The translations under genes were made by a program, and so were the position numbers. Positions 1,842 through 2,162 of a DNA stretch of 3,798 nucleotides are shown piece after piece; positions within the stretch are counted from its first letter, which is position 1; the number at the start of each line of letters is the position of its first letter. Under the pieces are notes generated by a model that was given only the letters and a program-made list of their open reading frames with translations, searched no databases and was not told the origin of the DNA. The stretch is taken from the NCBI RefSeq assembly GCF_003334255.1, contig NZ_QOWU01000115.1. One strand, 5' to 3'. Source of the stretch: Escherichia coli (GTDB lineage: Bacteria > Pseudomonadota > Gammaproteobacteria > Enterobacterales > Enterobacteriaceae).

Positions 1842-1984
1842 GAGAGCATGATACTTGTGGTTGATAGTTATTTTTATCCGGCGACAAAGATATTGAGATG
1901 AGGTCGCGGATGCAATACAGAATTTTCGTATTGCATGGTAACTGCTGATTCCTGAAACTGAAAGTCGTCATGAAACTGTAAGCG

Positions 1985-2011
1985 AAAAAACGGGGAGACG
2001 GCACGCTCCCC
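1985..2011 (-). terminator. Intrinsic-terminator-like hairpin, minus-strand orientation (stem GGGGAG/CTCCCC, loop 8 nt, then U6); paralogous to the hairpin at 1816-1841
   Basis: + strand reads A6 (1985-1990), c, ggggag (1992-1997), acggcacg, ctcccc (2006-2011). It has the same stem sequence and the same upstream A tract as the hairpin 168 bp to the left. Confidence 0.45.
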
Positions 2012-2162
2012 AAGGTCATACATGAGATAGTGGTGTTTTTATAGTCGAAAGAATAATTGCATAAAAAGAGTGTAAATTAAACATTCAGGGGATACAGAAT
2101 TTTCGTAGGCTGAGGGATTGCTGAAAATAATTTAGTGCGTCCTTCAATGGTCACTCAATAGT

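Follow-up and report, generated by a model that had tools for sequence, protein, structure and literature searches.

The stretch of DNA analysed here, which we call the window, is 3798 bp long and comes from an E. coli Eib prophage, of which it forms the right-hand cargo end. Its genes, and the spacer with which we are mainly concerned, are arranged as follows.

Up to 1082: a collagen-like tail fibre gene, which ends here
1094..1687, plus strand: tail fibre assembly / DUF4376 gene (tfa), matching PHROG 1141 (tail fiber, E 8e-81) and annotated by RefSeq
1688-2494: non-coding spacer between tfa and eib, 807 bp
2495..3565, plus strand: eib-type gene for a YadA-like trimeric autotransporter, matching NF033478
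3656-3798: the start of an orf156-like gene

The order tfa, spacer, YadA-like eib, orf156 and orf60, together with homology to P-EibA, identifies the region as an Eib cassette. The match of the eib gene to NF033478 covers the C-terminal part only (62 bits, against a cut-off of 750). The genes adjoining the spacer in related loci are annotated as YadA C-terminal domain proteins or as EibA, and the succession of tfa, spacer and YadA/Eib gene is constant in every locus inspected. Among the loci compared, the nearest copy of the window (L009) is 99.9% identical to it. The spacer is present in just 27 of 5426 complete E. coli genomes (strains 2012EL-2448 and NCTC9112 are among the carriers), at 1–5 places per genome and always on the chromosome, and also in the phages PhiR5_1/2 and PhiR12_x and in P-EibA of ECOR-9 (AF151091).

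Downstream of eib, orf156 and orf60 follow in every case (7969-8621 in L001), and relatives of the two at ~70% identity go with more distant eib-like genes. Neither ORF156 nor ORF60 has a match in Pfam or NCBIfam, and their PHROGs are of unknown function. We considered a regulator encoded next door by one of these genes and rejected it because such matches, and with them any DNA-binding domain, are absent. At the other end of the window, the long collagen-like Gly-X-Y repeats of the tail fibre gene (1-780) give rise to many spurious overlapping ORFs on both strands. The eib genes themselves are serum-resistance, IgG-binding genes. Their expression reportedly needs IbrAB, and to our knowledge their regulation beyond IbrAB is poorly understood.

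Within the spacer, the 16-mer ATACAGAATTTTCGTA is repeated exactly on the plus strand at 1915-1930 and 2092-2107, 177 bp apart from start to start, as the earlier note had pointed out. There is no further match in the window on either strand at up to 3 mismatches. Only 0.01 would be expected by chance, and two matches arose in 0 of 200 dinucleotide shuffles; the repeat is real and non-random. The 16-mer contains a weak dyad, TAC-N9-GTA, which occurs in the window at these two sites only. The features around the two copies are listed here in order of position.

1695..1712, minus strand: terminator C, just past tfa, a third terminator outside the repeat
1815..1841 (stem 1841-1824), minus strand: terminator B, GGGGAGCACGCACTCCCC then AGTTTTTT, the end of unit B
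1842..1914, minus strand: body of unit B, between copy 1 and terminator B
1910..1936: hairpin or palindrome around copy 1, TGCAATAC-N9-GTATTGCA, from sequence and folds
1912..2026: 115-bp segment missing in P-EibA-type loci, with its junction at a GAT microhomology
1915..1930: 16-mer copy 1, an exact match (TACGAAAATTCTGTAT on the minus strand)
1985..2012 (stem 2012-1991), minus strand: terminator A, GGGGAGCGTGCCGTCTCCCC then GTTTTTT, the end of unit A, in haplotype 1 only
2013..2091, minus strand: body of unit A, within a mosaic block (1953-2091) that has two haplotypes
2092..2107: 16-mer copy 2, an exact match, present in every architecture found
2108..2160, minus strand: conserved stretch upstream of copy 2 in this orientation, a candidate promoter region

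The hairpin that had been described around copy 1 is indeed perfect: tgcaatac (1911-1918) pairs with gtattgca (1928-1935) across a 9-nt loop, and an A1910-T1936 pair can extend the stem (8–9 bp in all). Its folding energy is −10.5 kcal/mol (z −3.0) for the minus-strand RNA and −13.1 kcal/mol (z −2.1) for the plus-strand RNA. Copy 2 lacks a comparable stem, again as claimed (−2.6 kcal/mol, z −0.27), and the perfect 8-bp arms are peculiar to copy 1 and lie outside the common 16-mer. The stem carries an uncompensated, disruptive change in L026/L042, the orthologue that diverges most, and the hairpin is missing altogether from the P-EibA-type deletion alleles and from a metagenome locus that has collapsed between the repeats (L215, described below). 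The hairpin of copy 1 is not a conserved feature; both it and the second copy of the 16-mer are dispensable.

A more regular pattern appears when the spacer is read on the minus strand. Between 1600 and 2600, this strand carries five terminator-like sites (three distinct hairpins) against 0.9 expected. The intrinsic terminators A, B and C all face this way and all lie in the first 330 bp of the spacer after the tail-fibre operon; there is no T-run able to terminate the plus strand at 1695-1712, 1824-1841 or 1991-2012. In the alignment, the stem of terminator C is seemingly kept through changes on both sides in L026/L037. In minus orientation, copy 2 is followed after 79 nt by terminator A and copy 1 after 73 nt by terminator B, which defines two units, A and B. 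Both end in a Rho-independent terminator of the kind found in sibling sRNAs, terminator A being absent from haplotype 2 and from the deletion alleles.

In global alignment, the two 175-nt units resemble each other with a z of 7.2 against mononucleotide shuffles. Dissection of the units with dinucleotide shuffles shows that this signal comes from the terminators (z 6.0) and the 16-mer only. The bodies (~75 nt) have no significant similarity (z 1.2, p ~0.15), nor do the 55 nt upstream of each 16-mer in minus orientation (z 1.4); by eye, the final ~30 nt ahead of each terminator have ATAAAAA..ACTATC..CA.GTAT in common. Thus, because the terminators are alike and the bodies are not, the 16-mer, identical at 16/16 positions, and the terminator are the only retained modules, in collinear spacing, and in both units a free middle separates a conserved 5′ block from a 3′ terminator module that is conserved as well. 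The description of the copies as otherwise diverged holds for the bodies and for the 55 nt on the other side, but not for the terminators. Unit B folds better than its shuffles (z −3.9). Covariation is absent from its alignment (covariation term +1.33): compensation is seen in 0 of 25 pairs, and wherever a paired position has changed, the pair is broken, although variation is so scarce that this is weak evidence.

If the two units are treated as paralogous, they are 54% identical outside the 16-mer, and their second-longest exact run is 7 nt. By simulation at 54% identity, an exact run of at least 16 nt has a probability of ~0.005 (range 0.001–0.02 for p = 0.5–0.6), and one of 16 nt would have a probability of ~0.001 were the bodies saturated. 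It had been argued that so exact a core implies either selection or gene conversion. Between the two paralogous units this inference is statistically reasonable. Gene conversion is unlikely because the flanks lack the homology to support it. A coding explanation was rejected, since the two 49-aa minus-strand ORFs that PhiR5_2 has annotated here translate the 16-mer in frames that differ, as YENSV and as PTKILYP. These ORFs are spurious and cross terminators and indels.

Conservation among orthologous prophages had been put forward as the way to judge the 16-mer against its flanks. Over ~50 orthologous loci both copies are nearly invariant, as is the greater part of the spacer. Among the 15 distinct spacers from orthologues, 1 of 16 columns is variable in each copy (A1921G in copy 1 of L026/L042, and one variant of copy 2, in L003), and 440 of the 791 16-nt windows of the spacer are conserved as well as the 16-mer or better. 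The flanks are thus conserved to the same degree, and the comparison has no power to discriminate. We also scanned metagenomes, using as anchor a neighbouring 20-mer rather than the 16-mer itself, and obtained 35 related loci. Copy 1 is invariant in all 21 of these that carry it; copy 2 is exact in 32 of the 33 readable loci, the exception reading GTACAG.... Copy 2 is retained in all ~50 loci.

Variation is unevenly spread along the spacer. Only 5 of 91 columns vary in 1824-1914 (unit B) and 3 of 53 in 2108-2160, compared with 37 of 139 (27%) in the mosaic block at 1953-2091. The divergent block of haplotypes 1 and 2 ends at 2091, directly adjoining copy 2, and so the conserved stretch that permitted exchange begins with the 16-mer. 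The eib-proximal two-fifths of the spacer (2108-2494) as a whole have ~5% variable columns, compared with 30% at the start of eib (its first 56 nt) and 11% at the 3′ end of tfa, and may be a conserved linker for phage cassette exchange or a dense regulatory region. Two inverted repeats lie there, a perfect one of 11 bp (GAAATTCCGAA/TTCGGAATTTC, 2354-2391, 16-nt loop) ~100 nt upstream of eib and one of 13 bp at 92% further upstream (2164-2203). Both are invariant between loci, and their GAAATTC cores resemble the GAAAATTC core of the 16-mer.

The repeated pair is unstable, and a series of natural variants exists. In haplotype 2, terminator A has decayed: the sequence folds at −2.8 kcal/mol, and no terminator is called there. 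Terminator B is present in haplotype 2 and in P-EibA-type loci, and in all metagenome loci within 0–1 mismatch. Through the 115-bp deletion, copy 1, its hairpin and terminator A are all lost, and the copy-2 end is joined to the distal part of unit B; this allele accounts for 10 of the 31 informative metagenome loci. In L215 (metagenome contig OGGU01003443.1), exactly 177 bp have been lost between the 16-mers. On its left the single remaining 16-mer is flanked like copy 1 and on its right like copy 2, both flanks being identical to those of full-length loci, so that a hybrid unit results from the upstream region of unit A, the 16-mer and the body and terminator of unit B. The most divergent orthologue (L026/L042, 88% identity) combines its substitution in copy 1 and its uncompensated stem change with a mismatch in the stem of terminator B. 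All of the alleles (haplotype 1, haplotype 2, the 115-bp deletion and the 177-bp collapse) keep 2108-2160 and one 16-mer, with a terminator at some distance. Two further details of the mosaic block may be recorded here. A cluster of haplotype-2 substitutions (3262-3290 in L004, equivalent to 1950-1978 of the window) makes a GC-rich hairpin (CCGGCAAC...GTTGCCCGG) that is absent in haplotype 1. A 15-nt direct repeat, TCCTGAAACTGAAAG / TCATGAAACTGTAAG, lies between copy 1 and terminator A (1950-1964 and 1968-1982, 18 nt apart).

Candidate promoters for the minus strand are weak and inconsistent, and none is convincing. For unit A, the best candidate in a PWM scan is TTGAGT-18-TAAATT (score 11.4), with a predicted transcription start site (TSS) at ~2122 that would place the 16-mer at about +16 to +31, which is typical of the seed in an sRNA. 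The −35 element of this candidate is lost in most loci through an 11-bp indel at 2143-2153. (The 11-bp tandem duplication at this position, TCAATGGTCAC / TCAATAGTCAT, is present in 6 of the 15 distinct spacers.) The same scan gave TTTTCA-17-GAAAAT (7.6), in which GAAAAT of the 16-mer would serve as −10 and the TSS would be at ~2092; this candidate is fully conserved at copy 2, where the variable block begins. Upstream of copy 1, the PWM scan found no plausible sigma-70 promoter for unit B and no −35 at usable spacing. A consensus scanner found no promoter for either unit.

The 16-mer and its surroundings were also sought beyond the locus. The earlier note had raised the possibility of a dispersed motif bound by a regulator. 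The idea finds no support: in the complete 50-kb genome of PhiR5_1 nothing beyond the two spacer sites matches with 3 or fewer mismatches, and among the matches listed from viral and genome collections those outside eib loci have unrelated flanks. Exact matches number 30 in viral contigs and at least 120 in genome contigs, and among the matches listed those outside eib loci occur in about the number expected by chance. In Moraxella, Neisseria, Kingella, Haemophilus, Actinobacillus and Pasteurella, the 16-mer is found in an identical 60-nt context (ctgaaattgctttttggtga...atgcgtatagctccaacgaagaag; genome contigs L087, L091, L095, L106, L108, L136, L141, L149 and L157), presumably within a horizontally spread gene unrelated to the eib locus. 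Comparison by eye with the consensus sites for invertases (gix/hix), sigma-54, sigma-28, LexA, CRP, PurR, Cra and CytR gave nothing convincing.

A cmscan of the whole window on both strands against Rfam 15 (AgvB, AsxR, STnc100, DicF and IsrK included; Rfam also includes Esr41) yielded 0 matches at E ≤ 1, and a known RNA family was rejected on this ground. Pairing with the eib leader, computed with RNAduplex, has energies equal to the shuffled null. Duplex prediction against PhiR5_1 gave no outlier at any start codon, and phage targets were rejected, the best non-self matches lying inside the portal gene and involving the non-repeat part. The more distant eib cassettes (GER2, L052-L062) contain no homologous units and have just the last 30–170 bp of the spacer in common with the window. 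As to earlier descriptions, the EibG paper (PMC4352079) is silent on the upstream region, and AF151091, through which the spacer has been in GenBank since 2000, annotates nothing at the 16-mer.

What, then, might the two units be? An sRNA gene is favored here because, as a single entity, it would most simply account for a conserved block and a conserved terminator that share a strand and keep a fixed spacing. We therefore put at roughly 0.4 the probability that the 16-mers are the conserved 5′-proximal core of two sibling, sRNA-like, terminator-ended units on the minus strand, a reading that is drawn from sequence. The units are confined to one narrow family of E. coli Eib prophage cassettes, in the tfa–eib spacer. 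On the minus strand each unit comprises TACGAAAATTCTGTAT, 73–79 nt of sequence unrelated between the two, and a closely similar terminator with a GC stem and a U tail. In favor of this reading are the non-random repeat, the excess of minus-strand terminators, the halt of the divergent block at the edge of copy 2, the folding of unit B, and the fact that 2108-2160 and a 16-mer with a terminator after it survive in every architecture. We infer that transcription would start ~15 nt before copy 2, within the conserved stretch 2108-2160, and would end at whichever intact terminator comes first. That would make unit B a partly decaying, redundant second copy, transcribed mainly by read-through. Near the 5′ end of such an RNA the 16-mer could be the functional single-stranded part, a seed for base pairing. 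An RNA transcribed from the minus strand here would also be a perfect antisense to any transcript that continues from the tail-fibre operon into eib. The fuller proposal, in which the 16-mer is the seed of a new Eib-prophage sRNA pair that is antisense to this read-through and regulates host or eib expression, is doubtful on the same data.

The main competing explanation, which we regard as possible though not probable, is that the 16-mer is functionless, all that survives undecayed of an ancient tandem duplication or of a place where two diverged phage homologues were joined, and acts mainly as a substrate for deletions. Several observations speak for it, and some of them also weigh against two sibling sRNAs. 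The 16-mer is no better conserved among orthologues than the spacer around it. Decay is visible, in the loss of terminator A in haplotype 2 and in the changes accumulating in L026, where copy 1, its stem and unit B are all hit. About one-third of the loci have the 115-bp deletion, and L215 has collapsed exactly between the repeats. There is no covariation, and the units are absent from the more distant cassettes. The sRNA reading is further burdened by the lack of an Rfam match, by the weak promoters and by the want of a convincing target in the eib leader or the phage. For a functionless remnant, the exactness of the 16-mer would have to come from chance, mutational coldness or a short repair event. 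The low probabilities simulated above make chance an uncomfortable choice at uniform divergence (~0.005, or ~0.001 with saturated bodies), and gene conversion requires a flanking homology that is absent here. The retention of copy 2 in all ~50 loci also speaks against it.

Two other explanations are less well supported than that of a functionless remnant. In one, which seems unlikely from what the sequence offers, the 16-mer would be a DNA-level element, a promoter core (−10 GAAAAT, with the TSS at the 3′ edge of the 16-mer) or the operator of a dimeric regulator, and the two sites, 177 bp or ~17 helical turns apart, would control the minus-strand units or, distantly, eib. The full conservation of TTTTCA-17-GAAAAT at copy 2, with the variable block starting at its TSS of ~2092, would fit a promoter, but copy 1 has no −35 at usable spacing. 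Similarly, an operator would account for a weak dyad that is restricted to these two sites of the window and that copy 1 extends to a perfect 8-bp inverted repeat, but the arms of this palindrome are outside the common 16-mer and are lost or mutated in variants. Moreover, the site recurs nowhere else in the whole 50-kb Eib phage, the companion proteins ORF156 and ORF60 match no DNA-binding domain, and the sites are 390–570 bp from the start of eib. In the other explanation, the 16-mers would flank an insertion of 161 bp as its duplicated target or core (att- or TSD-like), with L215 representing the empty site. Identical direct repeats do flank a discrete 161-bp segment, which contains the hap1/hap2 variable block, and L215 is an allele with just one copy that keeps both outer flanks. 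These flanks, however, do not differ from the flanks of full-length loci, and a slipped-strand deletion between the 16-bp repeats explains L215 equally well and more simply. The segment has no credible ORF and no terminal inverted repeats among the reported pairs, 16 bp is long for a target duplication, and terminator A within the segment resembles terminator B beyond it, which points to duplication. An insertion is thus very improbable.

The arrangement proposed in the sRNA reading has precedents in the tandem sibling sRNAs OmrA/OmrB of E. coli and PrrF1/PrrF2 of Pseudomonas; in OmrA and OmrB, too, the 5′ block and the 3′ terminator module are conserved and the middle is free. Like these pairs, the spacer units are adjacent and on the same strand, are ~120–140 nt long, and have a 5′-proximal block, a divergent middle and a similar Rho-independent terminator. 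Unlike them, the spacer units are predicted from sequence, have no recognisable shared promoter, no convincing target and no covariation, occur in just 27 of 5426 complete genomes, and include one unit whose terminator is missing in half of the haplotypes. These sibling pairs are also cited in recent work on prophage sRNAs (bioRxiv 10.64898/2026.05.13.724894).

A second comparison is with the Hfq sRNAs of prophages, AgvB (RF02702), AsxR (RF02703), PasA-D, STnc100 and Esr41. As in those cases, the units here are short and non-coding, have intrinsic terminators, lie in an accessory region of a lambdoid prophage beside virulence-associated cargo, and can be present in several copies per genome via multiple prophages; in contrast to them, they match no Rfam family by sequence or structure. 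The Pas sRNAs go with genes such as those for antiterminator Q, holin/lysozyme, RusA and TerB rather than with the tfa–eib spacer, and are not tandem duplicates (bioRxiv 10.64898/2026.05.13.724894). By analogy, the spacer units are a possible addition to the prophage sRNAs, as a member of no described family. The closest described relative of the locus itself is the region upstream of eib in P-EibA (AF151091, Sandt & Hill), which belongs to the same locus family, with a tfa-like orf-191A, the spacer and eib. Its spacer is 94% identical to that of the window over 86% of the length and lacks copy 1 and terminator A owing to the 115-bp deletion. The one stem-loop annotated there corresponds to 2354-2391 of the window and differs from the hairpin of copy 1.

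The natural alleles, which include two units, read-through, a fusion and a single unit, would be a ready-made deletion series for testing function. If the units are not transcribed, the repeat is an ordinary relic that drives small deletions in a phage spacer. If they are transcribed, a tandem, decaying sibling pair joins the growing list of sRNAs encoded by E. coli prophages. The units are directly upstream of eib, and if the sRNA reading is true, sRNA control by a prophage would be linked to an immunoglobulin-binding surface protein.
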